From contig JAZQAB010000105.1 of assembly GCA_045545055.1 (NCBI GenBank), positions 1 through 60,586 of the forward strand: a stretch of DNA of 60,586 bases, written 5' to 3'. This DNA comes from Clostridia bacterium (GTDB lineage Bacteria > Bacillota > Clostridia > UMGS1883). Below are positions 405 to 48,775 of the stretch, piece after piece (positions within the stretch are counted from its first letter, which is position 1; the number at the start of each line of letters is the position of its first letter). Both the position numbers and the translations under genes were made by a program. Under the pieces are notes generated by a model, which saw nothing but the letters and a program-made list of their open reading frames with translations, was not told the DNA's origin and ran no database searches.

Positions 405-1184
405 TTAGCTTTTATACCTTGTCTGATAGGCTTTTGGTGATTCGCCGTAGCGTTTGTGAAATTGCTTGCTGAAATATTTTATGTCTACAAAACCTGACTG
501 CAAAGCAATTTCACTGATGGGTAAATCACTCGTTTGAAGCAACTTTGAAGCATTTTCAAGTCTTAACAATCTGATATATTTATTAGGAGAAACGAGATAC
601 ACTTTCTTGAAGTTTTTTCTAAATGCTGCTTCAGACATGTATACCATTTTCGCAAGCTCCGTAATAGAAAGACTCTCTTTTTTATAGTTTTGATGGATGT
701 AGTCGCAGGCAGGCTTGATACGTATAAAAATTGAGTTTGTACTTGATGTTTCATCGCTTTTTAGTGAAAGAAGATAAATAAGCTCGTAGAAAATGGCTGT
801 ACATTTGTATTTGTATCCTTGTTCCTTTGAACTCCAGATATCATTGATTTTTAAAAATAAACTTTTGATTTCGTCAATATCTTCAAATCGGTAGACTTCC
901 ATATTGGTTGGGGGAGAATTGTACGTTATGAAATGTATTGAGATAATGGTTTCGTTTTCCGTTGTCTGCATGTAGTGAGAAACGTAGGGGAGATAAAGGA
1001 CATCATTACTGGATACTGCATAGGTTTTGTCTCCAAAAACAAAATCAGCATTGCCCATAAGTCGTATGCTCAGTGATGAGTATTGTCTCTGGTAACTTTC
1101 GTGAATGTTTTTATCTCTTGAAATTTTGTAAACGCCTATTAGTTCAAATGTTAAGTCGTTTTCAAAAAAGAACATTTTATACAC
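405..1184 (-). CDS. AraC/XylS-family transcriptional regulator (cassette 1)
   Basis: Seen: 259-aa ORF, divergent from the + operon at 1338. Known: the C-terminal double helix-turn-helix is typical of AraC (LSITELAKMVYMSEAAFRKNFKKVY...ISEIALQSGFVDIKYFSKQFHKRYGESPKAY). The N-terminal half looks like a sugar-binding cupin. Confidence 0.9.
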   Translation of the reverse strand: MYKMFFFENDLTFELIGVYKISRDKNIHESYQRQYSSLSIRLMGNADFVFGDKTYAVSSNDVLYLPYVSHYMQTTENETIISIHFITYNSPPTNMEVYRFEDIDEIKSLFLKINDIWSSKEQGYKYKCTAIFYELIYLLSLKSDETSSTNSIFIRIKPACDYIHQNYKKESLSITELAKMVYMSEAAFRKNFKKVYLVSPNKYIRLLRLENASKLLQTSDLPISEIALQSGFVDIKYFSKQFHKRYGESPKAYQTRYKS

Positions 1185-1337: not shown

Positions 1338-2702
1338 ATGAAAATAAATTTATTAAACAATCTTATTCCTTATCCCAGAAAAATTGAAGGTGGAGAAGGT
1401 GATTTCAGCTTAAATGCAAACTTAAAAACAACGGTTTGTGGAAAAGCAAAAAAAAACTACAACTATTGGCTTGGAAAGTTAGGTTTAGCATATGCTGAAA
1501 CTAAAGATTTTAACACAGATTTTTATGCTATAACAATTGGAGATGAAAATAACGAGTTTATTCCTCCTGCTTTTCCTGACAAAGAAGCGTACAGAATTGT
1601 GGTTAGTGCAGATTCAATAACTGTTACAGCGAACAGCGAAGAGGGACTTTCCTTTGCACTTAAAACATTGGTAAAAATTCAAATGCTTGAAAACAAGATT
1701 CCTTACGTTGTTATAGAGGATGCACCTATGGTAGATATGCGTGCAATCCATATGTGTATTTTTGATCCCGAAGATGGAAGCAAGAAAGATGATACATCTT
1801 TTTCATCTGTAAAAGAGAGAATTGAACTCATCTCTCTTATGGGATATAATCACGTATTTATTGAGTTCTGGGGGATGTTCCCTTATGAGAGACATCCCTA
1901 CGCTTGCTGGTCACATTCTACATATACCAAGGATATGGTAGAGGAGCTTATTAGCTTTTGTATTAATGATCTCCACATTACTCCTTGTCCGTGTCAAAAT
2001 TTGACAAGTCATGCAGGATGGAGTAGAATTTCAACACGCAGACATGTTGTGCTTGATCAGAAACCCGAGCTTGCAGATATGTATGTTCCGGGGGGTTGGT
2101 GCTTTGCAACAGAAAATCCCAAGACGAAGCAGTTCTTAAAGGATGTAATTGACGAACTTACAGAAGCATTTCATAATCCGCCTATGTTCCATATGAGCTG
2201 TGATAAAACCTTTGGATTTGGTTCAACTGAGGAGGACAGAACAAAATCTGCTGATGTCCTTTTTGCACAGCATATAGCAAACCTGAATTCATACATTACT
2301 TCCAAGGGTATTCGCCCTGTAATGTGGGCAGACATGCTTTACACATCAATGGATTCACTTACCTTTAGGTGTGCTCCATTTGTGGCAGATGTGCTTCCTA
2401 AAAACATTCTTATGAATATTTGGACACATAACGACCCCGGCGAATATTGGAATGATATTGACTATTTTGAAGATAAGGGTTACGAAACAGTTTATTCACC
2501 CTTTGCAAATTATGACAGCATAAGAAATATGATAAAGCTTTGCATACAGAAGAATAGCAAAGGTATTGTCCAGACTACTTGGTATTTGCCGGAAGGATCA
2601 AAACCGTACTTCACATATTCAATTGCAAAACAGTGGAATTTTGATGCGGAGATTGATGAAAATATGATAAATGACTTTCTCGGAGCTTTTTCTAAGAGGT
2701 GA
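1338..2702 (+). CDS. Cytoplasmic GH20-like (beta-N-acetylhexosaminidase-fold) protein
   Basis: Seen: 454-aa ORF with no signal peptide. Known (recall): the N-terminus LIPYPRKIEGGEGDFSL...ITVTANSEEGLSFALKTLVKI...VVIEDAPMVDMRAIHM follows the GH20 N-domain/TIM-barrel entry pattern. The position where GH20 has H-x-G-G-D-E reads FHMSCDK here, so the family or activity call is uncertain. Confidence 0.5.
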   Translation: MKINLLNNLIPYPRKIEGGEGDFSLNANLKTTVCGKAKKNYNYWLGKLGLAYAETKDFNTDFYAITIGDENNEFIPPAFPDKEAYRIVVSADSITVTANSEEGLSFALKTLVKIQMLENKIPYVVIEDAPMVDMRAIHMCIFDPEDGSKKDDTSFSSVKERIELISLMGYNHVFIEFWGMFPYERHPYACWSHSTYTKDMVEELISFCINDLHITPCPCQNLTSHAGWSRISTRRHVVLDQKPELADMYVPGGWCFATENPKTKQFLKDVIDELTEAFHNPPMFHMSCDKTFGFGSTEEDRTKSADVLFAQHIANLNSYITSKGIRPVMWADMLYTSMDSLTFRCAPFVADVLPKNILMNIWTHNDPGEYWNDIDYFEDKGYETVYSPFANYDSIRNMIKLCIQKNSKGIVQTTWYLPEGSKPYFTYSIAKQWNFDAEIDENMINDFLGAFSKR

Positions 2703-4663
2703 TTTTGTTGAAAACAGTTGTGTGGGGAGGAAGCAAAGAATTCTTATCCTTTCTTGAAACTTCTGCAGGTGCAGAAAATATTGTAAAAAAGGAAACTCTT
2801 CAGGAAACTTTAGAATATTCATTAGAAAATAGTGCTAAAGCGATGTTTCTTCTTCCTGATTATGATAATTCTGAAAGTGTACTTGAAGAGTTTGCAGATA
2901 GCTGCGTCAATAAGATAATTGATGTAATTGCTTCCGGGAAAACGAAGATATACATAGAAAATTATCCATCATTTGATGCAAGAGATTATTATATTTTTGG
3001 TGCGCAGTCTAGAGCATATCCTGCAGCACTTGGAAGAAATTCTATAAAGCTTATCGGTGATTTCAAAGATGGATTGGGTTTTGAACTTCTGCAAAAAAGA
3101 AACGGGGTTTTCTGGCAGAATGCAAAGCATTATGAGCAGGAAATTGATATATTGGCTGAAATAAGAAATTGCCTCGGTGTTCATGATGTGGTTGCGGAAG
3201 ACCAGCAGTGTATGGGAATTGCTCTTTCAAGAACGAAGACTAATGTATATACTGCAATGATTGATTTTACAAATTTTGACGGAAATTTCACTCTTCCTTT
3301 TGAAAATTGGAAGAAATTCTATTCTAAAATTTTTGGCGAAATCCTGGAAGTTGACGAGAAAAAAACAGAAAATGCTTTCGTGAGTGTTTATTCAGGTATC
3401 GGCACAGCAAAGTCGTGTGGCTGCACCAGAAATGATGATGAACTTAAGCAAGATTTGGAAGAATCAGTAAAGAATGCAGTAAACTGGCACCTTAATTCAG
3501 GAATTATGCCGGAGAGTGATGGCAAAAAAGGCGTGTACGAGATGGTGCGTTCTTTTGACCTTAAATTTGCAAAAAACATAAGGGGAGATGCAAGCCTTTT
3601 TACATCAGCACTATTCTTTATGGCAGGAAAATATTTTAAAAACGATGCTTGGAAAAATGTAGCTGAAAATATTCTCAACGAAACTCTTGTTAACCGTGAA
3701 CTTCAGATTACAGAAGGTAAAAACAAGGGGCTTCTGAAATGGTTTTCCGGCGTAAAAGATTTTGGAACACATATAATCTATGCAACCGACACTGCACGCG
3801 GCGGAAACTGTCTGTTTTCAATATATAACGCGACCGGCAGTCAGGAGATTAAAGAAAGACTTTTAATGATGGGTGAAGCCTTTCTTAAATGGTTTTCAGG
3901 AGATGCTCTTATCCCCGTTGGGTGGTTTAACTATGATGAATGGGATTTAGAAACAATATCCCAGTGTAAGAAAACAACTGCTCCGGAATTTTATGAGCCT
4001 ATAATGATTCTTATGAAAAATTTATATAGTATTTCTAGAGATGATCGTTATAGAGAACAAATAATAAAAACGGCGGATAAAATGGCGGAAATTTACCCTG
4101 ATTTCGGGATAGGTCCCTCTCATTCAAAAAATTTTACATTAAGTCGTGTTTTAGGTGTTTTTGCCATTGCACAATCATTTGAAAGCGGTAAATGGACAAA
4201 TATTATTGATGAACTACTTAACTATTTTAAAGGATTGCAGCATTCTTGCGGTGGCTTTGCAGACGGGAAGGCATACTTCGATGAAAAGAGTCTGAAAACA
4301 GATATGGAATTTGCAATAGGTTTCGGGCCTGAACACGGAAACATCTGTGACCTGATGTATTGCCAGAATACCATGCTTTACACATTGAACATTCTCCAAA
4401 AGTGCAAAACGGAAGGATTTGATAAATCCCTCGCAAAAAAAATGCTGGATAAAGCGGTGGATTTCCTTATTAATATACAGATAGTGTCTGAAGATAAAAC
4501 CTTATCAGGAGGGTGGATGCGTGCTTACGATATGGATCTTGGTGAGTATTACGGATGCGATAAGGATTTTGCCTGGGGTGCGTACAGTATACTGACAGGT
4601 TGGGTAACAGGAGCCATCCCCATAGCATTTCTTGATTTATTGGGAATGGAATCTATGTATTGA
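2699..4663 (+). CDS. Uncharacterised cytoplasmic protein (about 650 aa)
   Basis: Seen: a long ORF in operon context with no signal peptide. The GTG at 2699 overlaps the TGA stop (2700-2702) of the upstream gene. In-frame TTG codons at 2705/2708 are better spaced from AAGAGG (2694-2699), so the exact start is uncertain. No family recognised. GGFADGKAYF and GGWMRAYDMD are vaguely like alpha/alpha-barrel glycan enzymes (inference). Confidence 0.75.
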   Translation: MILLKTVVWGGSKEFLSFLETSAGAENIVKKETLQETLEYSLENSAKAMFLLPDYDNSESVLEEFADSCVNKIIDVIASGKTKIYIENYPSFDARDYYIFGAQSRAYPAALGRNSIKLIGDFKDGLGFELLQKRNGVFWQNAKHYEQEIDILAEIRNCLGVHDVVAEDQQCMGIALSRTKTNVYTAMIDFTNFDGNFTLPFENWKKFYSKIFGEILEVDEKKTENAFVSVYSGIGTAKSCGCTRNDDELKQDLEESVKNAVNWHLNSGIMPESDGKKGVYEMVRSFDLKFAKNIRGDASLFTSALFFMAGKYFKNDAWKNVAENILNETLVNRELQITEGKNKGLLKWFSGVKDFGTHIIYATDTARGGNCLFSIYNATGSQEIKERLLMMGEAFLKWFSGDALIPVGWFNYDEWDLETISQCKKTTAPEFYEPIMILMKNLYSISRDDRYREQIIKTADKMAEIYPDFGIGPSHSKNFTLSRVLGVFAIAQSFESGKWTNIIDELLNYFKGLQHSCGGFADGKAYFDEKSLKTDMEFAIGFGPEHGNICDLMYCQNTMLYTLNILQKCKTEGFDKSLAKKMLDKAVDFLINIQIVSEDKTLSGGWMRAYDMDLGEYYGCDKDFAWGAYSILTGWVTGAIPIAFLDLLGMESMY

Positions 4664-4682
4664 TGAAAAAAGGTGGTTTGAT

Positions 4683-5639
4683 ATGCTTATGAAAAACAAA
4701 TCAAAAAATGTAAAAGACTTTAGAAACGGTGGTAAGGTGTTTTCAGACCTTCGGGAAAATTATCAGCTTTATCTTATGATACTGATTCCTTTCGTTTACA
4801 TATTCGTGTTTAAATACATTCCTATGTATGGGACTCAAATAGCATTCAAAGATTACAGAGTAAATGATGGTATCTTGGGAAGTGATTGGGTTGGATTGAA
4901 ACATTTCATCAGATTCTTCACAACTCCCCAATGCTGGCAGATTATTAAAAATACATTCGTGCTTGCTTTATACGGTCAGATTGTCGGTATGCCGCTTCCA
5001 ATATTTCTTGCAATCGGAATCAATTACTGCAGAAGCGGTAAGCTGAAAAAGTCGGTGCAGATGATATCGTATCTTCCGCACTTCCTTTCAACAGTTATTA
5101 TCGTAAGCTTGATTTCAATGATGTTCAGCTATCAGTCAGGACTTGTAAGCAACCTTTCTGAAATCTTCACGGGAAACCGTGTGGATATACTGAATAAACC
5201 TGCAAACTTCAAACATCTTTACATATGGTCTGATGTTTGGCAGAATGCAGGCTGGAGCTCAATTCTCTATGTATCCGCATTGGCAGGTGTAGACCCTGCA
5301 CTTCACGAAGCAGCAATGATAGACGGTGCAAGCAAGTGGAAGAGAATCTATCACATAGATTTACCGTGTATTCTCCCCACAGTAGCAATTATGCTCATCA
5401 TGAGTATGGGTAAGCTTCTGACAATCGGCTTCGATAAAACATTTATGATGCAGAATCCCACAAACATAGATGTATCAGAAGTGCTCAGTACCTTTGAGTA
5501 TAAGAGAGGTATAGCAGCAAGCCTCCCCGATTATTCATATCCTGCGGCAATCGGTCTTACAACCTCCGTAGTTACATTTATTCTCGTAATGATATCCAAC
5601 AAGCTTTCACAGAAGCTTTCTGGATACGGCTTGTGGTAA
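4683..5639 (+). CDS. Carbohydrate ABC transporter permease (LplB/CUT1-like)
   Basis: Seen: the ATG at 4683 is preceded by AAAGGTGG. The track start at 4632 is a TTG without an RBS and overlaps the upstream gene. The protein is multi-pass and hydrophobic. Known: the EAA-loop region (ALHEAAMIDGASKWKRIYHIDLP) is typical of MalF-type sugar permeases. Confidence 0.9.
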   Translation: MLMKNKSKNVKDFRNGGKVFSDLRENYQLYLMILIPFVYIFVFKYIPMYGTQIAFKDYRVNDGILGSDWVGLKHFIRFFTTPQCWQIIKNTFVLALYGQIVGMPLPIFLAIGINYCRSGKLKKSVQMISYLPHFLSTVIIVSLISMMFSYQSGLVSNLSEIFTGNRVDILNKPANFKHLYIWSDVWQNAGWSSILYVSALAGVDPALHEAAMIDGASKWKRIYHIDLPCILPTVAIMLIMSMGKLLTIGFDKTFMMQNPTNIDVSEVLSTFEYKRGIAASLPDYSYPAAIGLTTSVVTFILVMISNKLSQKLSGYGLW

Positions 5640-5649
5640 GGAGGTTAGT

Positions 5650-6543
5650 ATGAAAAAGAATAAATTAAGAAATTCATCAAGTGACAATGTGTTTGACGTG
5701 CTTAACACAACCTTGCTCATTGCATTTTCACTTGTAATCCTCTATCCCTTGATAGTGGTATTAAGTTCATCTTTCAGTAATCCCACTGCACTTATGGCAG
5801 GAAAGGTTCTTCTTTTCCCCATAAAGCCAACTCTTGACGGATACAGAGCGGTAATATATCATCCCGATATCTGGATTGGACTGAAGAATTCGTTTCTTTA
5901 TACTGTAATAGGAACAATAGTAAACCTTGTGGTAACGGTTCTTGCAGCATATCCGCTTTCAAGAAAGGACTTCACCTCAAGAGGGTGGATATCGCTTTTC
6001 TTCGCATTTACTATGTGGTTTAATGGCGGACTTATACCAACATTCCTCCTTATAAAGAATATGGGATTGTATAACACCCCTGCGGTTATGATAATCCCCC
6101 TTGCTATGAGTGTGTGGAATATGATAATTGTCAGAACTTATTTCCAAAGTAATATCTCTGACGACCTTTTGGAAGTTGCCAAGCTTGACGGTTGTAGTGA
6201 CATAAAGTTTTTGACACAGATAGTAATACCGCTGTCTAAGCCTGTACTAGCAGTAGTGGCACTTTACTACGCTGTTGCAAACTGGAACGTGTATGCACAC
6301 GCATACATCTACTTGAACAGTCCGGAGTATCAGCCCATACAGGTAGTGCTACGTGACATCCTGCTTCTCAATTCAACACAGGAAATATCCGTCGATGTAA
6401 CGAAGATGGCAAAGAGCGAGCAATTAAGTGAGCTTTTGAAATATTCCCTTGTTGTAACAGCAAGCATTCCGATGATTTTAATTTATCCCTTTGTACAGAA
6501 GTATTTTGTAAAGGGAATTATGGTAGGTAGTGTAAAAGGATAA
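5650..6543 (+). CDS. Carbohydrate ABC transporter permease (LplC/MalG-like)
   Basis: Seen: AAGGAGG RBS and a 10-nt gap from the previous gene. Known: EAA loop LLEVAKLDGCSDIKFLTQIVIPLSKP. The tail YPFVQKYFVKGIMVGSVKG is shared with the paralogue at 42289. Confidence 0.9.
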   Translation: MKKNKLRNSSSDNVFDVLNTTLLIAFSLVILYPLIVVLSSSFSNPTALMAGKVLLFPIKPTLDGYRAVIYHPDIWIGLKNSFLYTVIGTIVNLVVTVLAAYPLSRKDFTSRGWISLFFAFTMWFNGGLIPTFLLIKNMGLYNTPAVMIIPLAMSVWNMIIVRTYFQSNISDDLLEVAKLDGCSDIKFLTQIVIPLSKPVLAVVALYYAVANWNVYAHAYIYLNSPEYQPIQVVLRDILLLNSTQEISVDVTKMAKSEQLSELLKYSLVVTASIPMILIYPFVQKYFVKGIMVGSVKG

Positions 6544-6569
6544 CAATAAAAAAAGAAAGGAAGAAAGAA

Positions 6570-8219
6570 ATGAAAAAAGGTTTTAAGCATGCACTTGTTC
6601 TTGTATTGGCATTTATAATGGTGCTTACAGTAGCAGGCTGCGGAAAAGGCACAAAGAAAACAGCATTAAACCCAAACGTGTCGGGAACAAACGAATTCCC
6701 GATAGTAAAAGAAAAGACAGAGCTCACAGTATTTGTAGCGAAGCCCTCGATGATTGCAGACCTCGAGACCAATGAATTCACCAAGTGGTATGAGGAAAAA
6801 ACCGGCGTACATATCAATTGGGATATAGCATCAGGTGACACAGCTCAGGCAATCAACCTTAGAATTGCAAGTGGTGATTTGCCTGATGTATTCTGGAATT
6901 GCGGATTCTCGCCGGCACAGGTATTTGCATACGGTGAGCAAGGCCTGTTTCTTGATTTGACAGATTATATTGACAACTATATGTATTATTTCAAGGATAT
7001 TCTCTCCAAACGTGAGGATATCAAAACCAAGATTACAACAAAAGGTGCTATTTACGGACTTCCTACAATTCTTGAGTCGGTTACACAGCCTTGTCTTAAT
7101 AAGATGTGGGTTTATCAGCCATGGCTCGATAAGTTAGGTCTTGAACTTCCTACAACGACAGATGAGTTTTATGAAATGCTGAAAGCATTCAAGGAAAAAG
7201 ACCCCAACGGCAACGGTAAGGCGGATGAAATTCCCCTTGGTGGTCGTGGACTCCGTTCAGATGTAGGTATTGAAGACTATATTATGAATGCTTTCACGTA
7301 TACGGATACTAGAACAAACAGAATCTATGTGGAAGATGGGAAGGTTAAGTGCTCAGCAACAACTGAGGGTTATCGCGAAGGTCTCCGCTTTATAAAGAAG
7401 CTTTATGATGAAGGTCTCCTTCTCCGTGACGTATTCACAATTGACAGAACTCGTCTTACAGCTCTCGGCGAATACGAAGGTGTGCCGATTCTCGGTGCTT
7501 GTGTAGGTCAATGGCCAGGTATGTTCACACTTTCAAGTGGTGAATCCGGAAGAATTACAGAGTATACCTCCGTTTCCCCGTTGGAAGGACCGACAGGTCT
7601 CCGCCAAACCGCGAGAACTGATATAACAAATAGCATGGGAACAGCTTTTATTGTCACAAAGGATTGCGAAAACCCTGAAGTTGCAGTTAAGTGGGTTGAC
7701 TGGATGTACTCTAACGAAGGCAGAATCAAGGCACAGGGAATACAGGGCTACCGTGAAGCTAAAGAAGGCGAAATCGGTCTTAATGGTAAACAGGCGAAAT
7801 ATACATACGACCCCGTTCCAGAAGAAGAACAGAATACAAAGTTTGGTACAGTACAGAACGAAACATGGGGTGCAAACTTCATAATTCAGTATTTTGACCG
7901 TGAAATGCAGGGTAGTCAGAAACTTCTGGACACAGATCTTAACAAGATGCTGTATCATGAATCAATTAACAAGTATTTTGATTACATAGTTGATAAGTCA
8001 TATCCGTCGATTCCGATTGATTCTGAAATGGCTGCCGAATACCAGGATTTAGAAACTACAATTTCAGAAGCGATTGACAAGAATTTTGTTGCATTTGTAA
8101 CCGGTGAAAAGGACATTGAAAAAGATTGGGATAAATATGTTAAGGACCTTGATAAGTACGGACTTCCCAAATTGCTTAAGCTGGCACAGGAACGTTACGA
8201 TATGTATTATAAAAAATAA
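6570..8219 (+). CDS. Extracellular solute-binding lipoprotein of the ABC importer (LplA-like, about 550 aa class)
   Basis: Seen: a signal peptide with lipobox LTVAG-C24. Size and sequence are typical of the large family-1 SBPs paired with LplB/LplC permeases (recall). Confidence 0.9.
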   Translation: MKKGFKHALVLVLAFIMVLTVAGCGKGTKKTALNPNVSGTNEFPIVKEKTELTVFVAKPSMIADLETNEFTKWYEEKTGVHINWDIASGDTAQAINLRIASGDLPDVFWNCGFSPAQVFAYGEQGLFLDLTDYIDNYMYYFKDILSKREDIKTKITTKGAIYGLPTILESVTQPCLNKMWVYQPWLDKLGLELPTTTDEFYEMLKAFKEKDPNGNGKADEIPLGGRGLRSDVGIEDYIMNAFTYTDTRTNRIYVEDGKVKCSATTEGYREGLRFIKKLYDEGLLLRDVFTIDRTRLTALGEYEGVPILGACVGQWPGMFTLSSGESGRITEYTSVSPLEGPTGLRQTARTDITNSMGTAFIVTKDCENPEVAVKWVDWMYSNEGRIKAQGIQGYREAKEGEIGLNGKQAKYTYDPVPEEEQNTKFGTVQNETWGANFIIQYFDREMQGSQKLLDTDLNKMLYHESINKYFDYIVDKSYPSIPIDSEMAAEYQDLETTISEAIDKNFVAFVTGEKDIEKDWDKYVKDLDKYGLPKLLKLAQERYDMYYKK

Positions 8220-14445: not shown

Positions 14446-17079
14446 ATGAAAAAAATATTAGCTTTAATATTGACTATAGTTATGCTTATTCTTTCTCAGA
14501 GCAGTGTTATGGCGGAAAAAACAACATACGATGATGCGCTCTTCGATATTACTTCGTTGGGAATATTTGTTCCGGATGAAAACGGGGGATACAGAGAGGG
14601 TAGCCCTCTTACACGTGCAGAATTTGCAACAGCAATTCTTCGTATGATAGGATATGATGAAATTGTATCAGTCGGTGTAGCGACCTCTTTTGCCGATGTA
14701 GCAGAGGAAGATTGGTATTATAATGCTGTACAGAATGTTTATTCGCTTAACATAATGACTGGGGATGGAAAAGGTTATTTCCATCCCACGGCAAATGTAA
14801 CCCTAGAGGAGGCGGTAAAAACAGTAGTTACCATTCTCGGTTATGAAATATCTGCTGAAAATCTTGGTGGCTGGCCGCAAGGATATATGGCGATGGCTAC
14901 AAAATTAGGTGTTCTTGATGGGTTGAAAACATCAGGAGTATTTACTCGCGGAGATTTGGCAGTAGTTCTCTACAATGCTCTTGATGTGCAAATTCTTACT
15001 AAGCGCTATGGTAGTGAGGAATTTTATAAAGACAGTGATACATATCGTTATCTGCTGATGCGAAAGTATGGGAAAAAGGTATATAATGTAGTTGATGTTG
15101 TTAAGGCAACTGCGTTTTCTTATACTGAATTTCCTATAAAAGACCTTGAAGAGGACGAGGTAGTTATTGGGGATATACGCTACAAGAAAGGCAGTACTGA
15201 TGTTGATAACTACATCGGTATGGAGGTAGAGATTTTTGCTGTGGAGTACCCTGAAGGAACAACAACTCTCCTTTCTGTAAAACCGACCGGCAACAATACT
15301 GTTACAGAGATTGCACTTGCGGATATTGAAGGATGCAGTAATTCCTATGTCAATTATACAAGCGGAAACAAGACAGAAAAAATTAACTTTGAAGCGCTCC
15401 CCGTGATGCTTTATAACGGAACCCCCGTAGAATTTAACAAAAACGAACTTTTGTCAGAAAATCCAGGATGTATAAAGTTTGTCGATTGTAACAACAATAA
15501 AAAAGTTGATTATATTTTTATAGAGGCATATGAAAATATACTTGTTCAGCGAGTTTCTGAAAATGTTATCGTACCTTATAACGGATTTACTGTAAATGGT
15601 AAGAAAACCTTGTTCGTAGATTTAGAGAATGAGAATAAAAAGTTCGAAATTTATGACGGTAACGGTGAGATTGCACAGTTTACCGACATAAAGCCTGAAC
15701 AGATTTTGAGTGTCTATTCTGATAAGAATGAAACTCGTTTCAGAATTTATTTAAGTGACAAGACAGGTACGGGAGTTTTTTCTGAATATGATGAAAATAC
15801 AGTAAAAATAGATGACAATACCTATAATGTTTATAGTAAAACTGTATACGACGGGGAACTTGGAGACGAGGTCACGGTATACATTGATGCAAAAGGATAT
15901 TGTGCATATATAAAATATGTACCACAGACTAAGAATTATGGATATGTGTTAGATGTGTGGGAATCAGGTTTCACAAAAGAAGTAGCCCTACTCCTTTCAA
16001 AGCCTGCAAGCTTTACCGCAGATATCAACTCTGAAGACTTGGACAATATAACTTCTACACCTGTTCTTATTTGTGAAAATGAAGGAATTGAATATTACAG
16101 TCTTGCAAAAAAAGTAAAAATTAATGGACAGAGATACAGTCAGGGTGATGCAATTGAGAAACTTCAAAATGCGGGGGCTGTTAAATTCAGTCTTAATTCA
16201 GAAGGACTTATTTCTGAAGCGGAGATACTTGAAATGTATGCAGGCGATGAAAGTCTGAAACTTACATATAACGTTTATGACAAAGTATTTGCCGGAAATT
16301 CATTCATTGAAGGATTTTCTCTTGATGAAAAATCAAATATTATATGTATTCCCGAAATCGTCAAGCGCGAAGATGACTATCTTGTAAAAACTCGTATCGA
16401 TGTCAGTGGTAATACGGAAGGATACAATGTAAGAGCCTACGATTACGATGAAGTAACAAAGAAAGCAGGCCTTGTTGTTATTGTAAAGGGTATGGATGCA
16501 GAACTTATAAATGATGCTACAATAACATCTTCACCAGCTTGTATGGTTAAGAATGTGAGAGTCGTATGTGACGAAGACAACGGAGATTATTATAGACTAA
16601 CATTGATAGAAAACGGTAAGGAAGTTACATATAATACTATAGAAGTCAGAGAAAAGAATGAAGTTATAAGCGAACTACGTCCTGGAGATCTTATAAGTTA
16701 TTATATGAACGATTCTGATCTTATTGAAAATGTTATGCTTTTTCATTCGTTTAAAAATGGAGATAGCTCCTATAAAATTCAACATGCTACTCGTGACTAT
16801 GTAGAGTACTGCGGTATTATTGAAGATGTTTCATTTGATGAGGTAGATAATACAAATTGTCTTTTGGCGACAAAGGTGGTTATGGAGATTCAGGGTGGCT
16901 CGGTACCGTTGTACATACAACAGAGAAATAAACCTCCGGTATTTATCTATGATTTTTCAGGTGAAGAAATGGTGCAGAGTTCATCACTTGAAGAACTTAT
17001 TCCGGGATATGACAAACTCTATGTTCTTTCTGTATCGAACAAAACCCCTAGAGCTTGCGTTATTATAAGAGGAGAATAA
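14446..17079 (+). CDS. 877-aa surface protein: signal peptide + N-terminal SLH triplet + about 690-aa uncharacterised body
   Basis: Seen: GAGGAG RBS and signal peptide MKKILALILTIVMLILSQSSVMA. SLH-like repeats: LTRAEFATAILRMIG; FADVAEEDWYYNAVQNVYSLNIMTGDGKGYFHPTANVTLEEAVKTVV; GWPQGYMAMATKLGVLDGL...TRGDLAVVLYNAL. The rest matches no motif I recognise. A paralogue lies at 46129. Confidence 0.8.
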   Translation: MKKILALILTIVMLILSQSSVMAEKTTYDDALFDITSLGIFVPDENGGYREGSPLTRAEFATAILRMIGYDEIVSVGVATSFADVAEEDWYYNAVQNVYSLNIMTGDGKGYFHPTANVTLEEAVKTVVTILGYEISAENLGGWPQGYMAMATKLGVLDGLKTSGVFTRGDLAVVLYNALDVQILTKRYGSEEFYKDSDTYRYLLMRKYGKKVYNVVDVVKATAFSYTEFPIKDLEEDEVVIGDIRYKKGSTDVDNYIGMEVEIFAVEYPEGTTTLLSVKPTGNNTVTEIALADIEGCSNSYVNYTSGNKTEKINFEALPVMLYNGTPVEFNKNELLSENPGCIKFVDCNNNKKVDYIFIEAYENILVQRVSENVIVPYNGFTVNGKKTLFVDLENENKKFEIYDGNGEIAQFTDIKPEQILSVYSDKNETRFRIYLSDKTGTGVFSEYDENTVKIDDNTYNVYSKTVYDGELGDEVTVYIDAKGYCAYIKYVPQTKNYGYVLDVWESGFTKEVALLLSKPASFTADINSEDLDNITSTPVLICENEGIEYYSLAKKVKINGQRYSQGDAIEKLQNAGAVKFSLNSEGLISEAEILEMYAGDESLKLTYNVYDKVFAGNSFIEGFSLDEKSNIICIPEIVKREDDYLVKTRIDVSGNTEGYNVRAYDYDEVTKKAGLVVIVKGMDAELINDATITSSPACMVKNVRVVCDEDNGDYYRLTLIENGKEVTYNTIEVREKNEVISELRPGDLISYYMNDSDLIENVMLFHSFKNGDSSYKIQHATRDYVEYCGIIEDVSFDEVDNTNCLLATKVVMEIQGGSVPLYIQQRNKPPVFIYDFSGEEMVQSSSLEELIPGYDKLYVLSVSNKTPRACVIIRGE

Positions 17080-17080
17080 T

Positions 17081-18214
17081 ATGAAGGTAGATTCTAATAC
17101 AAAAAAATGGGCTGATGAAATATGGGGAAAGCTTGATAGAAAACTTTCCCATTCAGTTTCTACAGTAGGAGATATGATTCCCTATACCACTAAAGGAGGA
17201 AAATACTGCCCTCATGAATCGAACGATATATCATGGTGGACAAACGGCTTTTGGGGCGGATTAATGTGGCTTATGTATGCAGGTACAAAAAATGATCTAT
17301 ATAAAAAGGCCGCAGAGAAGAATGAGGTGCTTCTTGAAGAAGCATTTGAGGAATATAACGGAATACATCATGATGTAGGCTTTATGTGGCTCCTTACCTC
17401 AGGAGCAAACTATATGCTTACAGGGAGTCAAAAATCCGGCAAAAGAATGATGCACGCAGCAGACCTTCTTGCAGCAAGATTCAATGTAGAGGGCGGTTAT
17501 ATTCGTGCGTGGAATGGACCTAAAGAAGAGGAAAGGTTCAGGCAGATTGCAATAATTGACTGTATGATGAATATTTCTCTCTTATACCATGCTTCAAAAG
17601 AAAGTATGGATGATAGATATAAGGCAATAGCGATGCGTCATGCAGATAAAACAATGCGGCACCACGTAAGAGAAGACGGAAGTATAAATCACATAATGAG
17701 ATACGACACCCATACAGGCGAGGTAGTAGCAATAGAAGGCGGTCAGGGGTATAATGAAAATTCCTCATGGTCCCGCGGTCAAAGCTGGGGCCTGTACGGA
17801 TTTACTCTAAGCTATATACATACAGGTAAAAAGGAATATCTTGATACGGCAAAAAAGATAGCTCATTACTTTATAGCAGCGTGTTGCAGTGATTGGCTGG
17901 TAAGAAGTGATTTTCGTGCACCCAAAGAACATATTCTGTATGACAGCACAGCAGCATGTATTGCAGCGTGCGGACTTCTTGAACTTTCAGGATTGGTAGA
18001 TGAAAAAGAATCAGATATGTACTTTAGTGCGGCAATAAATATTCTTAAGGCGACGGAAGAGAAATTTGCTGACTGGTCAGAAGAGACAGACGGAATACTA
18101 GATTTTGGTTCTGAATTGTATAATGGTGGAAAGCATATGAAGATAATCTATGGAGATTATTACTTTGCAGAAGCTATATATAAGCTTAGAGAAACAGGAC
18201 CGCTTTTCTGGTAA
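17081..18214 (+). CDS. GH88 unsaturated glucuronyl hydrolase, cytoplasmic
   Basis: Seen: the ATG is 1 nt after the previous stop; no signal peptide. Known: GH88 hallmark blocks WWTNGFWGGLMWLMY, HHDVGFMW, IIDCMMNISLLY, SWSRGQSWGLYGF and DSTAACIAACGLLEL. Confidence 0.9.
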   Translation: MKVDSNTKKWADEIWGKLDRKLSHSVSTVGDMIPYTTKGGKYCPHESNDISWWTNGFWGGLMWLMYAGTKNDLYKKAAEKNEVLLEEAFEEYNGIHHDVGFMWLLTSGANYMLTGSQKSGKRMMHAADLLAARFNVEGGYIRAWNGPKEEERFRQIAIIDCMMNISLLYHASKESMDDRYKAIAMRHADKTMRHHVREDGSINHIMRYDTHTGEVVAIEGGQGYNENSSWSRGQSWGLYGFTLSYIHTGKKEYLDTAKKIAHYFIAACCSDWLVRSDFRAPKEHILYDSTAACIAACGLLELSGLVDEKESDMYFSAAINILKATEEKFADWSEETDGILDFGSELYNGGKHMKIIYGDYYFAEAIYKLRETGPLFW

Positions 18215-18232
18215 CAAAAAGGAGAGAGCAGT

Positions 18233-21200
18233 ATGATGAAAAAAGTATTTGCATTTTTAATGTCTTCAATTATTTTCTTTTCCGGATACAGCTTCACCAC
18301 ATTTTCTGCCAATGAAAACACAAGTGAATATTTTCAGGAAAAAATAGATTTTTATGAAAGTTTTAATGTTGGAGACCCTCAGGCTTTTACTGATGAAGAA
18401 TTTTTCGGTAAGTGGGACGGTGAAAAATGGGAGGTAGACCCTGCTTTTGATTATGAGAATTTTCCATGTTTAGTTGATATTGAAGAAGCTGCAAAAACAA
18501 GTGATTATGCTGCAGCAAAAGAAGCAACCCTTGAATATTACAGGCAAAGATTTAAAGAAGATAAGTATGAGAGCACTGTAACTGCAACCTCAAAATCTTA
18601 CCGTCTTTTGGGCGAGCTTGCGATGGAGAATACCATGATAAGATTTTCTAATCTTGTTCCTATGGAAAAACTTACACTCGTTGAAGATGAAAAATGGTAT
18701 GAGGCAGATTTGATCGAGCGTGTGTTACACCGAATTACAACTACAACTAGTACAAGGTTCAATATTCGTTTACACGAAACAAAAAAAGATGGATATATGG
18801 CACAGTTCTGGACTAAGGAAAGTGACAAAACTCCATATGTGAAAATTATTGTAAATGGTGCTGAACGAACATATTATCCTTTGGCAGATAATACTGTACG
18901 TGCCGGAGATTTCCTTAATACTTCGTATAGCAATGAAGAATATATGTACGCGAATGAAAGCTATACGACCATCGGAAAAGAATCTCCTATAGATAATTAT
19001 ACAAGGAGAGCATGCATGCTGTTCGATTTTTCCGACATAACAGCCAATGATACAATAAGCTCAGCAAAACTTTTTGTGTATGGAAAGATGATAGAGGATG
19101 ATAATCCTGAGAGACCGGAAGAAATAAAAACTTCAATGAGTGTTTTTGTGCTTGATGATGCACAGAACTTAAATTGGATAGAAGAGGGTCATTCTTGGTT
19201 ATCACAGAGTCAGGACGACAGCTTTTCATATGATGGAGAATATGGACCCAATCTTACAATTCCCACAAAGCTGAGTGGTCAGTGGTCGGCTTTTGTAATG
19301 CATCAGCAGTATATGGTGAAGTGGCTTACCGACCTTTACAGAGGAACAGGTGATGAAGCATATGCATATCACGCTATAAGACTTACAATAAATTCAGCTC
19401 ACATTCTCCGTGACGATTTTACTCAGGTAACTCAGTACTTTATGCAACTAGCAACAAGAAACTCAAATCTTGTAACAAACTTATACACACTTATAAAAAG
19501 TGATTATATGACTCCTGAGTATTTCACAGTAATTCTGAAATTGATTCATATGCAAAATGACTACCTTGTAGAAGGTTGGTCGAGCGGCGATGAAACAAAT
19601 AATATAGGCTCTATAGTAACAGCGGGACTTATGAAGGGCGCATTAACTATCAGGGAGTTTAAAAAATACAGTGCCCCAAAAACTGGGTTAAGTAATCCTA
19701 ATTGGCCTGGCTCAATGCAGGGCGGATGGAGAGATGTAGGTATATATCGCTCAATTTATAAATTAAAAACTACGGTTTTTGAAGACGGTAGTTGTGTGGA
19801 AATTCCGATTGCCTATCTTATGACCAATGTAACTCACTTCTTTGAGTGTTATGAGTGGGCAGAGGAGATTGGTTTCGGAGAAGAAATGGCAAAATATGTT
19901 GAGAGCTCTGAACGTGAGCTTCTTCGCAAAGTTGCATACTATGTTGTGAATATGCAAAACCCTATAAAAGGAGTATGGCAGATTGGCGATGACAGCAAAT
20001 ACGTATCAAATAATTCTTCGAAAATGTGTTATATTGTAAAGTTTTTTGGAATAAATGATGACCCCGTTATCGAATGGGGATATTCTAAGGGAGAAAATGG
20101 AGCGCCGCCTGAGAACACTTCATATGTTTCAGATACGGTGCAAAAAGCTGTTCTTAGAAGCAATTGGACAGAAAATGCGGTGGCGCTATATATGGATGCC
20201 GACGGTGGAGTTGGCTCTCATGCGCATAATGATGACCTTTCTCTGGGACTTATGGCTTATGGAAAGTATCTTCTTGTTGACCCTCTTAAGCATACTTATA
20301 ACGGAGACCAGAAGATTGTAAGCTGGCAGGTTTCCACAAGGGCTCATAATACTATTGAAATAAATAACGCTACCCAGCGTGGAATGGTCACCGGACAAGG
20401 TCTTACTGAAGAGCCTTTTGGTGAAGAACTTTATTTTCCTTCGCAAACAGGTGAAATAGGTTCTCTGAATCCAGAAACAAGATATCTTGGAAAGCTTTAT
20501 GATTATATGGAGGGTGATACAAACGGGTATAAGAATAACAATGCTCTTAATGGTGATTTTAAGGTTTCGAGGAATGTGCTTTTTGTAAAACCCGGATATT
20601 TTATTGTAACTGATTATATAAAACCTGAAAATACAGACGAGAATACATATAAACAGGCATGGCATCTTTATCCGGGTATCAAGTATGAAATAGAAGAAGA
20701 TTCAAAAAATATTGTTTCAAAAGATGCACAAGGTGCAAATCTTATTATTGCTCCCGTTGACAGCAACGGAGAAATCTCTCTGGAAAAACGAAGAGGATAT
20801 TACAGTACACAGGGCTCTAATACTCCGGTTATTGTAGAAAACGAATATGTAACTTATAATAAGCAGAAAAATGGAACAACAACCTATAACACAATTTTGT
20901 ATCCTTTAGCAGCAGGCGAAATAAAGGATATACAGACAGCAGATATTCCTCTTGATGTGGATGAAAGTGTTGCAAATGCATTTTCAGCAATAATAACCGA
21001 TAAAAATTCTGGGGGAGTAACTAATGTTTCTTACTATACTTTGTTTGATGATACACAGAAAGCAGATAGAAAATTCGGATATTACAGAACAGACGGAACA
21101 CTTGCGTTTGTTGAAAAAATTCAGGATAATTACAGCAAAGTAATTCTGAAAAACGCAACAAAGCTTTCCGTTGACGGAGGAAATGCGATTGTAGAGAACG

Positions 21201-22105
21201 GAAATATTATTAAAGACATAGGAATAAAAAATGAAAATTACGCTATCGAAATTGATGTAAAGGATGAAAGTGATATCGATGTGGATACTTTCAGACTTTA
21301 CAGCGATGATAATATAAAATCTGTAACCATTAATGGTCGCAGTGTATACTTTGAACAGAGAGACGGTTATGTTTATCTGAGGGAAACAGGAATTCCGGAG
21401 GATGTAACTGATGATACCATTTCTGCCCCGATAGTACCTGAACATTCTACTGGAAAAAAGCCTTCAGGATGTGGAGGAAGCTCTTCTGGGGTTGGCTCTA
21501 CCAGTGGAGAAAGTGATAACCCCGAAAACGATAAAACGGGTATAGACACTCCCGTAGCTACGGACAAGGATAAAGAGTCTTTCTCTGATATTTCTGCACA
21601 CTGGGCAGAAAAGTATATTCTTGAAGCAAGTGAAAAGAAACTTGTAAATGGTGACGGAAAAGGAAACTTTAAGCCTGACGACTCCGTAACACGGGCTGAG
21701 CTTATTACAATGCTTATGCGTGCAGTAGAGGGAAATGATGTTAATTATAACGGAAACTTCTCCGATGTGGTTTCAGACGATTGGTTTGCACTCGCAGTTG
21801 CGAAAGCATTGTCATTGGGAATTATATCAGAAGATACAAAATTCCGTCCCAATGATTGTGTAACTCGAGAAGAAATGTGCAAGATGATAGTGAATGTATA
21901 CACAATTCTCAGCGGTGAGATAATTGCCAGAAATGACATTACATTTTCTGACGGAGAGGATATATCCTCATGGGCGGAGGATTTTGTTAAAAAAGCCGTG
22001 TCAGCAGGACTCATGAATGGTGTTGACAAGAATTCTTTTGCTCCCAGGAGTGGAGCAACACGAGCTCAGGTAGCAACAGTAATTTGCAGAATGCTGAAAA
22101 ATTAA
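18233..22105 (+). CDS. 1290-aa heparinase II/III-like (polysaccharide-lyase fold) protein with C-terminal 3x SLH anchor
   Basis: Seen: AAAGGAGAG RBS and a signal peptide. Known: heparinase II/III block GVGSHAHNDDLSLGLMAYGKYLLVDP...RAHNTIEIN, and an upstream helical region starting DYAAAKEATLEYYRQR. After a Gly/Ser linker come three SLH repeats (FSDISAHWAEKYILEASEKKLVNGDG...; FSDVVSDDWFALAVAKALSLGIIS; ISSWAEDFVKKAVSAGLMNGVDKNSFAPRSGATRAQVATVICRML). Confidence 0.85.
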   Translation: MMKKVFAFLMSSIIFFSGYSFTTFSANENTSEYFQEKIDFYESFNVGDPQAFTDEEFFGKWDGEKWEVDPAFDYENFPCLVDIEEAAKTSDYAAAKEATLEYYRQRFKEDKYESTVTATSKSYRLLGELAMENTMIRFSNLVPMEKLTLVEDEKWYEADLIERVLHRITTTTSTRFNIRLHETKKDGYMAQFWTKESDKTPYVKIIVNGAERTYYPLADNTVRAGDFLNTSYSNEEYMYANESYTTIGKESPIDNYTRRACMLFDFSDITANDTISSAKLFVYGKMIEDDNPERPEEIKTSMSVFVLDDAQNLNWIEEGHSWLSQSQDDSFSYDGEYGPNLTIPTKLSGQWSAFVMHQQYMVKWLTDLYRGTGDEAYAYHAIRLTINSAHILRDDFTQVTQYFMQLATRNSNLVTNLYTLIKSDYMTPEYFTVILKLIHMQNDYLVEGWSSGDETNNIGSIVTAGLMKGALTIREFKKYSAPKTGLSNPNWPGSMQGGWRDVGIYRSIYKLKTTVFEDGSCVEIPIAYLMTNVTHFFECYEWAEEIGFGEEMAKYVESSERELLRKVAYYVVNMQNPIKGVWQIGDDSKYVSNNSSKMCYIVKFFGINDDPVIEWGYSKGENGAPPENTSYVSDTVQKAVLRSNWTENAVALYMDADGGVGSHAHNDDLSLGLMAYGKYLLVDPLKHTYNGDQKIVSWQVSTRAHNTIEINNATQRGMVTGQGLTEEPFGEELYFPSQTGEIGSLNPETRYLGKLYDYMEGDTNGYKNNNALNGDFKVSRNVLFVKPGYFIVTDYIKPENTDENTYKQAWHLYPGIKYEIEEDSKNIVSKDAQGANLIIAPVDSNGEISLEKRRGYYSTQGSNTPVIVENEYVTYNKQKNGTTTYNTILYPLAAGEIKDIQTADIPLDVDESVANAFSAIITDKNSGGVTNVSYYTLFDDTQKADRKFGYYRTDGTLAFVEKIQDNYSKVILKNATKLSVDGGNAIVENGNIIKDIGIKNENYAIEIDVKDESDIDVDTFRLYSDDNIKSVTINGRSVYFEQRDGYVYLRETGIPEDVTDDTISAPIVPEHSTGKKPSGCGGSSSGVGSTSGESDNPENDKTGIDTPVATDKDKESFSDISAHWAEKYILEASEKKLVNGDGKGNFKPDDSVTRAELITMLMRAVEGNDVNYNGNFSDVVSDDWFALAVAKALSLGIISEDTKFRPNDCVTREEMCKMIVNVYTILSGEIIARNDITFSDGEDISSWAEDFVKKAVSAGLMNGVDKNSFAPRSGATRAQVATVICRMLKN

Positions 22106-22373
22106 AGTTAAGATGCAATGGTTTTGTGAACAAAAGGAAACATAAAAGAGTAGCAACAACGATAGAAATTGTTGAGCATATGTTTGGAACAGAAAGAACT
22201 ATTGAGTCAATTGCAGAGGTAGGATTTGACAGAAGTGCTTATTTCGATTGCTACTCAAACTCTTTTATAGAACAGGAGAATTATTCAGGAACGACAAAGA
22301 AATTCCGTTAGTAAGGTATTTGATCGAGAATATAGAACAATATAAAAACTAAAAATTAAATCTATGAAAAATT

Positions 22374-22415
22374 AAGGAAGCCTTCGTTTACATATATATA
22401 AACGAGGGCTTCCTT
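22374..22415. terminator. Hairpin terminator between convergent operons
   Basis: Seen: a 17-bp stem (22374-22390 pairs with 22399-22415, one G-U pair) and an 8-nt loop. On the minus strand it is followed by AATTTTT. It lies between the + stop at 22105 and the - stop at 22449. Confidence 0.7.
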
Positions 22416-48732: not shown

Positions 48733-48775
48733 ATTTAGCTTGGGCAACAAATACGGGAAAAGGAGGGAACATTCA

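Follow-up and report, generated by a model that had tools for sequence, protein, structure and literature searches.

The gene described here occupies positions 18233-22105 of a 60,586-nucleotide stretch of DNA (contig JAZQAB010000105.1 of assembly GCA_045545055.1, from a Clostridia bacterium of the UMGS1883 lineage), which we refer to as the window. We consider it likely that its 1290-amino-acid (aa) product is an extracellular, endo-acting, beta-eliminating lyase belonging to a Gram-positive polysaccharide-utilisation cassette. Sequence and predicted fold concur in making this protein a distant relative of polysaccharide lyase family 12 (PL12). What is new here is the clade to which it belongs, together with a circularly permuted carbohydrate-binding module of family 96 (CBM96) that is built into the catalytic domain; the S-layer homology (SLH) tether and the inserted, permuted CBM96 are both unreported. 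Literature on the new families PL43-46 and on PL12 with S-layer homology yielded nothing relevant.

Searched alone with phmmer against all PDB sequences, the protein matched heparinase III of Pedobacter heparinus (HepIII or HepC, PL12; 4MMH/4MMI) with an E-value of 5.3e-10 over aa 358-714. With a profile made from 35 clade members, HepIII (4MMI) was found at E 2.7e-55 over 563 positions, followed by two further PL12 entries, BT4657 (5JMD, E 1.1e-44) and 4FNV (E 1.7e-31). The other families lay far behind, namely PL15 (Atu3025, E 3e-4), PL33 (8R73, E 4e-3), PL40 (Uly1040, E 0.04) and PL17 (9IRQ, E 0.68), and no PL39 entry appeared at E<=1. Structure comparison gave the same picture. The AlphaFold2 (AF2) model, which covers aa 25-1010 and draws on 35 homologues, has a pLDDT of 92 and a pTM of 0.87, and its top five Foldseek matches are PL12 entries (5JMD, 4MMI and 4FNV among them) with E 8.5e-25 to 3.6e-23, TM(target) 0.61-0.69 and identities of 17-18%. 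Behind them come, in this order, PL39, PL35, PL17, PL15, PL40, dermatan sulfate (DS) epimerase 1, PL21, PL33 and PL8. The two-domain fold of HepC and BT4657 (5JMD/5JMF, 4FNV), an (alpha/alpha)5-6 toroid and then an antiparallel beta-sheet domain, is present in the model. Nonetheless, judged by its sequence, the protein is certainly no HepC orthologue: it scores 65.1 bits with the NCBIfam equivalog model NF045573, for which the cut-off is 700. Likeness to PL12 does not settle membership in the CAZy classification either, because PL35, which is similarly alike to PL12 (23.6% identity over 32% coverage at the BLAST level), is a family of its own (PMC12088678). For this clade, a new family is no more likely than a deep branch of PL12. 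The first-pass annotation had raised the possibility of a new lyase family; the clade is indeed uncharacterised, yet the protein is not unplaced, since its relation to PL12 is specific. A close match to a characterised enzyme, named there as one thing that would speak against the proposal, did not turn up in these data: identity to solved structures is at most 18%, and clade members carry only general names.

In HepIII, Tyr294 and His424 serve as base/acid and Asn240 as neutraliser (PMC12088678). Profile alignment (HepIII chain numbering +24) places Asn457, Tyr528 and His663 of our protein on these positions, and the three residues match those of HepC and BT4657 one by one. In a hidden Markov model alignment of the 176 retrieved clade proteins, Tyr stands at its position in 175 of 175 representatives and His in 173 of 173, and Asn in all but four of 174 (170/174). 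Additionally, Lys436 and Arg780 are invariant, and Trp645, His705, Gln808, Trp810 and His811 nearly so. Conservation of the triad across about 175 diverged representatives indicates selection for catalysis. The loss of catalytic residues, which the first-pass annotation had named as another observation that would speak against its proposal, was not found.

The second carrying element is the insert. Residues ~78-120 of the protein align with HepIII chain residues 16-58, that is, with the first helices of the toroid, and the AF2 model has three helices at aa 78-131. After the third of these, where HepIII has about 35 residues (between chain residues 58 and 94), the clade carries a beta-sandwich of roughly 200 aa. 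It was found in 172 of the 176 clade members and is part of the conserved core. Pfam recognises CBM96 in the full-length protein (aa 213-290, 31.9 bits; cut-off 26) and, more strongly, in the isolated insert (PF24517, 38.7 bits; same cut-off), and the NCBIfam DNRLRE model scores 31.8 bits, slightly below its cut-off of 34. A single-sequence PDB search with the insert gave no match, and the kinship to CBM96 showed only with a clade profile. This profile (A2, made from 25 inserts) matched the CBM96 founder TM6-N4 (7VBO) at E 1.7e-14 in two pieces of swapped order, profile positions 76-185 pairing with chain residues 10-112 and positions 6-76 with residues 125-196; the DNRLRE domain 8WAB was matched at E 3.6e-13 and likewise swapped. 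We then compared Pfam scans of single inserts with scans of inserts joined head to tail. In two clade members the single copy gave two partial CBM96 pieces, and the doubled copy one match over the junction, covering profile positions 3-163 and 2-163 of 164. The insert of our own protein is more diverged, and in its doubled form it is the related Disaggr_repeat model that spans the junction (aa 101-268, positions 8-171 of 179). Because the halves are swapped relative to 7VBO and 8WAB and the match crosses the doubled junction, the insert reads as a complete, circularly permuted CBM96/DNRLRE-type domain. The permutation is common to the clade members tested and may be what lets the domain fit inside a toroid loop.

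TM6-N4 belongs to Defluviitalea phaphyphila Dp0100. It and the DNRLRE domain (8WAB, NF033679) are beta-sandwiches homologous to the insert, and in Dp0100, as here, the module sits on a polysaccharide lyase of a Clostridia-type organism. The founder is a separate appended module, whereas in our protein the domain is permuted and lies inside the catalytic N-domain. Moreover, TM6-N4 binds internal alginate chains through K10, K22, K25, K27, K31 and R36 (PMC9971899). The five lysines are not conserved in the insert, where they align to Gly/Glu/Tyr/Glu/Val-type consensus positions of A2, and of the six basic residues only the region of R36 is still basic (T-K/R-R). Because these lysines are not kept, CBM96 does not imply alginate here. 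The first-pass annotation had taken an internal segment of the protein (with TVRAGDF at aa 221-227 and ACMLFDFSDI at aa 260-269) for an accessory beta-sandwich repeated in a second cassette of the window. The segment does recur at the equivalent place in the paralogous lyase at 48716-53749 (aa 649-800), and also in a third paralogue (C120:42313-50661). It is not, however, a module scattered around cassette 2 but the CBM96/DNRLRE domain of the clade core, and phmmer did not detect it in the two other proteins tested, the large surface proteins at 9805-14415 and 53712-58100.

The remaining layout is that of an exported, wall-bound enzyme (Table 1). A signal peptide, a heparinase II/III body, some 330 beta-rich residues after RAHNTIEIN, a Gly/Ser linker and three SLH repeats had been proposed at first reading, and all are borne out by Pfam, the AF2 model and the sequence itself. 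The signal peptide, read directly, is MMKKVFAFLMSSIIFFSGYSFTTFSA. Pfam places Hepar_II_III_N at aa 357-578, Hepar_II_III_C at aa 658-878 and SLH on three stretches of aa 1116-1286 (E 1.5e-36). The SLH region also matches the SLH domain of Bacillus anthracis Sap (6BT4), at E 7.9e-10 with the single sequence and 7e-28 with a profile. These E-values are far past chance level. The model orders the domains as helices, the ~200-aa beta insert, the helical toroid, the beta-sheet domain (with the motifs GSHAHNDD at aa 661-668 and RAHNTIEIN at aa 703-711) and one more beta domain. This last domain has no Pfam match and was found in 167 of the 176 clade members. Compared with HepC and BT4657, the protein thus adds a C-terminal beta domain, a linker and an SLH anchor, besides a permuted CBM96 where HepIII has a short stretch after its first helices. 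It would be displayed on a Gram-positive surface, in contrast to the periplasmic or outer-membrane setting of the two PL12 enzymes.

On its strand, the lyase gene comes at the end of an array made up of two permeases of an ATP-binding cassette (ABC) transporter, a solute-binding lipoprotein, three secreted surface proteins and a member of glycoside hydrolase family 88 (GH88). The GH88 stop codon lies at 18212-18214, and the lyase reading frame begins 18 nt downstream of it. GH88 unsaturated glucuronyl hydrolases are expected to act on the products of lyases. In Pfam the GH88 gene reaches 21.8 bits, under the cut-off, and it matches the Bacillus unsaturated glucuronyl hydrolase 1VD5 at E 3.6e-64, keeping the motifs HHDVGF (Asp88) and IIDCMMN (Asp149). 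Hence the predicted assignment is solid despite the weak Pfam score, and the coupling of lyase and GH88 suggested at first reading has held. The gene is nearer to the Bacillus enzyme than to streptococcal ones, and it has Gly, Leu and Gly at the positions of R236, S365 and S368, which may mean that it lacks the sulfate-recognition motif of the streptococcal enzymes. As to the other neighbours, the GH20-like protein is remotely GH20 (best PDB match 9FYM, E 1.9e-10), its 654-aa partner matches nothing in PDB sequences, Pfam or NCBIfam, and the solute-binding protein bears a faint resemblance to NgcE. In the 1536-aa surface protein, SLH and CBM32-like parts are all that is recognised, and neither it nor the 877-aa protein has a recognisable catalytic domain.

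With an AraC regulator, permeases, a solute-binding protein, a GH88 and a lyase, the cassette as predicted holds the components by which a Gram-positive polysaccharide-utilisation locus (gpPUL) is defined, and a PL12 gpPUL has been predicted in silico for Roseburia hominis A2-183 (PMC9067506). That locus, which is uncharacterised, has the same ingredients as ours: a lyase of PL12 type, a hydrolase for unsaturated uronyl groups, a regulator and an ABC importer. An SLH-anchored lyase coupled to GH88 had been called a non-textbook arrangement. Because of the R. hominis precedent the operon logic is ordinary, and only the SLH tether and the insert are unreported. Our cassette has three large surface proteins in addition, and its lyase belongs to a separate deep clade; for the R. 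hominis locus, PMC9067506 mentions neither an SLH anchor or SLH partners nor a CBM96 insert.

How widespread is this type of lyase? A word-indexed search found 34 relatives. An exhaustive search of 1.84 billion representatives retrieved 1361 proteins at E<=1e-3, 583 at E<=1e-10 and 291 at E<=1e-30, the last figure being clusters at 50% identity and a lower bound, hence at least 291. Of the best 150 relatives, most have 1000-2800 aa and a few are shorter fragments; their alignments mostly cover query residues ~22-980. The nearest relative shares 73% identity, and the GTDB species set holds no match above 38% identity. The clade was absent from all 400 genomes sampled phylum-wide. In the order it occurred in 16 of 87 genomes, and one genome could hold as many as 7-9 matched stretches. 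Judged from these searches, the clade is large in metagenomes, taxonomically narrow and multiplied in copy number within genomes. Its public names are only "heparinase II/III family", "DNRLRE domain-containing" and "hypothetical", all from metagenome-assembled genomes (MAGs) of Clostridia. No sequencing runs were listed for the lyase gene itself; by way of weak holders of galT/galK (5-12% of words), the habitat comprises gut, faecal and bovine gut metagenomes.

The genome to which the window belongs (G000, a MAG of 2.43 Mb, 93% complete) carries six genes with Hepar_II_III_C and seven of GH88 type, besides about 35 SLH proteins. Its best GH88 match (C118:13663-14730, 329 bits) has an internal TAA stop; either this gene is a pseudogene or the assembly is wrong at this point. 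Three of the lyases are paralogues of the clade, 28-31% identical to each other: ours, the one of cassette 2 and a 2782-aa protein (C120:42313-50661, or L014:2314-10662) whose CBM96, PL12-like core and SLH parts are preceded by eight aBig_2 repeats. Each has a cassette with its own importer and a ~875-aa SLH protein, and GH88 is present in cassettes 1 and 2. In the C120 cassette, the importer (of ABC type) and the SLH protein (875 aa) are accompanied by GH95, GH3 and a regulator that is a Cache-AraC hybrid. Accessory sets differ among the three (GH20-like; GH95 and GH3; aBig_2 proteins), and the divergence of the paralogues suggests that they may have several targets. In four loci of other assemblies a ~875-aa SLH protein likewise adjoins the lyase, with an ABC solute-binding protein or GH88 gene close by and NagA-like, GDSL, GH35 or PF10022 genes as further neighbours. 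The recurrent grouping of GH88, ~875-aa SLH protein, lyase and ABC genes in these four loci and in the two further cassettes of the genome lends support to the predicted lyase. One locus, from a related MAG (L016, GCA_045541975.1; 692-3340 and 18133-22218), has a clade lyase clustered with a chondroitinase-ABC-type PL8 (Lyase_N, Lyase_catalyt and Lyase_8), which hints at a substrate that is glycosaminoglycan (GAG)-like or a branched glucuronate polymer. The same locus also encodes a second, CBM32-bearing Hepar_II_III_C protein.

If these parts are put together, the protein is real, surface-anchored and probably active. The SLH repeats would hold the exported enzyme on the secondary cell-wall polymer while the linker projects the catalytic head outward. 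There, Asn457 would neutralise the C6 carboxylate of a 4-linked hexuronate, and Tyr528, helped by His663, would take H5 and protonate the leaving O4, giving oligosaccharides whose non-reducing end is a delta-4,5-unsaturated uronate. The presence of GH88 points to a product of the delta-4,5-unsaturated glucuronyl type. The ABC system could then import the fragments, after which the cytoplasmic GH88 would strip the unsaturated uronate and leave the remaining sugars to the cassette's other glycosidases. The CBM96-type insert probably widens the surface for binding polyanions, with a ligand preference other than alginate.

Another question regards the substrate. Unlike the genomes of the PL12 enzymes HepC and BT4657, the G000 MAG contains no formylglycine sulfatase: both of its PF00884 matches are LtaS-like proteins with multiple transmembrane segments that lack the C/SxPxR motif. 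Because of this, the target is likely to be a glucuronate polymer without sulfate, and a heavily sulfated GAG is unlikely. We therefore favour, as most likely, an unsulfated glucuronate-containing heteropolysaccharide of the animal gut, possibly one that contains N-acetylhexosamine (GAG-like, or a microbial capsule or exopolysaccharide), and probably not classical sulfated heparan sulfate. None of the 654-aa, 1536-aa and GH20-like proteins of the cassette points to the polymer; taken together, the neighbours related to N-acetylhexosamine (the GH20-like protein, the solute-binding protein with its faint NgcE likeness, NagA-like genes in orthologous loci and the CBM32-like parts) hint that this orthologue group acts on a polymer containing amino sugars, GAG-like or capsular. 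For this predicted lyase a new substrate specificity is plausible, because the genome has no sulfatase, the positions of HepIII His241 and His295 are not kept, and the three diverged paralogues have different accessory enzymes. More tentatively, and with doubt outweighing confidence, the clade (at least 291 clusters in a narrow lineage of uncultured gut Clostridia) could turn out to be a PL family of its own, or else a subfamily deeply split off within PL12, whose substrate lies beyond those known for PL12, likely candidates being a microbial capsule or exopolysaccharide or another non-GAG glucuronate heteropolysaccharide. The permuted CBM96 would then form part of the substrate cleft and set specificity, and the paralogues would form a toolkit for acidic glycans.

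A less novel explanation would be that the protein does what canonical PL12 enzymes do, acting like BT4662-PL12 as a surface lyase for heparosan or low-sulfated heparan sulfate on the N-acetylated (NA) domains of the host or on K5-type capsules. PL12 heparinases III are after all closest in sequence and fold, with an identical triad; BT4657 favours regions with little or no sulfation, and in Bacteroides thetaiotaomicron the polysaccharide-utilisation locus for heparin/heparan sulfate pairs PL12 with GH88 (PMC9067506), as seen here. The missing sulfatases would fit unsulfated heparosan too. GH89 is absent from the 93%-complete MAG, which is weak evidence since alternative routes exist, and its absence is not decisive if lyases reach disaccharides. 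Nonetheless, we regard this explanation as unlikely, given the 17-18% identity, the HepC score of 65 against 700 bits, and the loss of both the histidine of the "NH" pair and that following the catalytic Tyr. Furthermore, three paralogues as diverged as these in a 2.4-Mb genome, with their own importers and different accessory enzymes, argue for several complex substrates rather than one simple GAG, and a relative adjoins a chondroitinase-ABC-type PL8.

Alginate might come to mind as well, considering the homology of the insert to 7VBO and a Foldseek match to the PL39 alginate lyase of Dp0100 (6JPN, E 2.3e-20), the second-best structural neighbour, with PL17 at about 1e-16. Against this stand the loss of all five TM6-N4 lysines, the negligible profile likeness to alginate lyases of PL15, PL17 and PL39, the GH88 partner and a habitat in the animal gut, where alginate is no regular substrate. 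We gave an alginate lyase very little weight and rejected it, as the binding lysines are lost and there is no sequence link to alginate lyases. It is also highly improbable that the protein is no lyase at all, being instead a C5-epimerase-like enzyme or a catalytically silent surface protein that binds glycans. The fold is common with human DS-epimerase 1 (6HZN, Foldseek E 3.9e-15), and the surface proteins nearby (877 and 1536 aa) are themselves without recognisable catalytic domains; but lyases, not the epimerase, are the nearest Foldseek neighbours, and the adjacency to GH88, which needs unsaturated ends made by a lyase, recurs. A pseudoenzyme was rejected on account of the invariant triad.

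Some observations nevertheless weigh against an active, glucuronate-specific lyase as we propose it. HepIII His241, the histidine of the "NH" pair, corresponds to Ile458 in our protein, and among 174 clade members the position holds Trp (104), Ile (16), Phe (12) and His (11). HepIII His295, which follows the catalytic Tyr, corresponds to Leu529, and among the clade residues listed at this position (A/T/V/S/I/N) there is no His. Older mutagenesis work reportedly found both histidines of HepIII to be important. Because both of these positions, shared by HepIII and BT4657, are replaced, details of the mechanism may differ from HepIII. Identity to characterised PL12 enzymes is low throughout, and lyase activity across the clade is a prediction. 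Furthermore, the step that would follow GH88 for the unsaturated uronate was not found, KduI being absent from the 93%-complete MAG (weak evidence), and we infer the substrate from gene absence in an incomplete MAG and from weakly annotated neighbours.

Table 1. Features of the lyase gene and its surroundings, in coordinates of the window
Feature	Coordinates	Strand	Basis or remark
AraC-family regulator at head of cassette	405..1184	-	Pfam
Two cytoplasmic proteins (GH20-like; 654-aa partner)	1338..4663		Upstream, particular to cassette 1
Two ABC permeases (4632-6543) and solute-binding lipoprotein (6570-8219; lipobox VAGC)	4632..8219	+	Presumed oligosaccharide importer
Two secreted proteins of F5/8-type-C (CBM32-like) kind, one of 515 aa and one, with SLH, of 1536 aa	8246..14415	+	Variable surface components of the cassette
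877-aa secreted protein, N-terminal SLH repeat	14446..17079	+	Conserved partner, adjoining a clade lyase at all loci examined
GH88 unsaturated glucuronyl hydrolase of 377 aa, lacking a signal peptide	17081..18214	+	1VD5 match, Asp motifs
Shine-Dalgarno sequence AGGAGAG	18220..18226	+	6 nt ahead of ATG, read from sequence
Complete reading frame, 1290 aa, predicted SLH-anchored PL12-like polysaccharide lyase (P0001)	18233..22105	+	Translation, Pfam, profile and Foldseek comparison
Sec signal peptide, aa 1-26 (KK n-region, hydrophobic core, TFSA; without lipobox Cys)	18233..18310	+	Read from sequence
N-terminal helices, aa 27-131	18311..18625	+	AF2 model, HepIII profile alignment
Beta-sandwich insert, aa 134-332, circularly permuted CBM96/DNRLRE type	18632..19228	+	Pfam, NCBIfam, insert profile, doubled-insert scan
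Main part of (alpha/alpha) toroid, aa 351-617 (Hepar_II_III_N), holding N457 and Y528	19283..20083	+	Pfam, profile alignment, AF2
Codon of Asn457 (HepIII Asn240), predicted carboxylate neutraliser	19601..19603	+	Alignment
Codon of Tyr528 (HepIII Tyr294), predicted general base/acid	19814..19816	+	Alignment
Antiparallel beta-sheet domain, aa 631-904 (Hepar_II_III_C), with GSHAHNDD, RAHNTIEIN and invariant R780	20123..20944	+	Pfam, profile alignment, AF2
Codon of His663 (HepIII His424)	20219..20221	+	Alignment
Extra C-terminal beta domain, aa 914-1035	20972..21337	+	AF2; past end of HepIII alignment
Linker rich in Gly/Ser/Pro/Asp, aa 1040-1115 (~75 aa)	21350..21577	+	Sequence reading, outside AF2 model
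Three SLH repeats, aa 1116-1286, non-covalent cell-wall anchor	21578..22090	+	Pfam and PDB sequence matches, outside AF2 model
Inverted repeat, 21 nt, 90% complementary, no loop spacing	22374..22415	.	Between lyase and convergent GH3 gene
Paralogous 1677-aa lyase of cassette 2	48716..53749	+	28% identity over full length, same domain order including insert

Beyond the lyase, the array ends towards a convergent GH3 gene. The inverted repeat in between has the arms AAGGAAGCCTTCGTTTACATA / TATATAAACGAGGGCTTCCTT and is likely a bidirectional terminator; a simple terminator scan missed it. Right behind the lyase stop, at 22108-22310 on the forward strand, one frame reads ...TIESIAEVGFDRSAYFDCYSNSF... 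and resembles the C-terminal helix-turn-helix tail of an AraC-family protein whose N-terminal part is missing, making it a probable relic of a regulator gene.

Little is known of how gut Firmicutes break down acidic glycans. The lyase offers a well-modelled entry into a sizeable clade, with defined residues (N457, Y528 and H663) and a defined construct (aa 27-1040), and the GH88 and the solute-binding protein are matched partners for tracing its products. The permuted CBM96 is a clear case of a domain inserted, through circular permutation, into a carbohydrate-active enzyme, and warns against equating the label CBM96 with alginate. If the substrate proves to be new, CAZy would gain a lyase specificity and possibly a family, and this would aid the annotation of hundreds of metagenomic proteins that now go by the names "heparinase II/III family", "DNRLRE domain" or "hypothetical".

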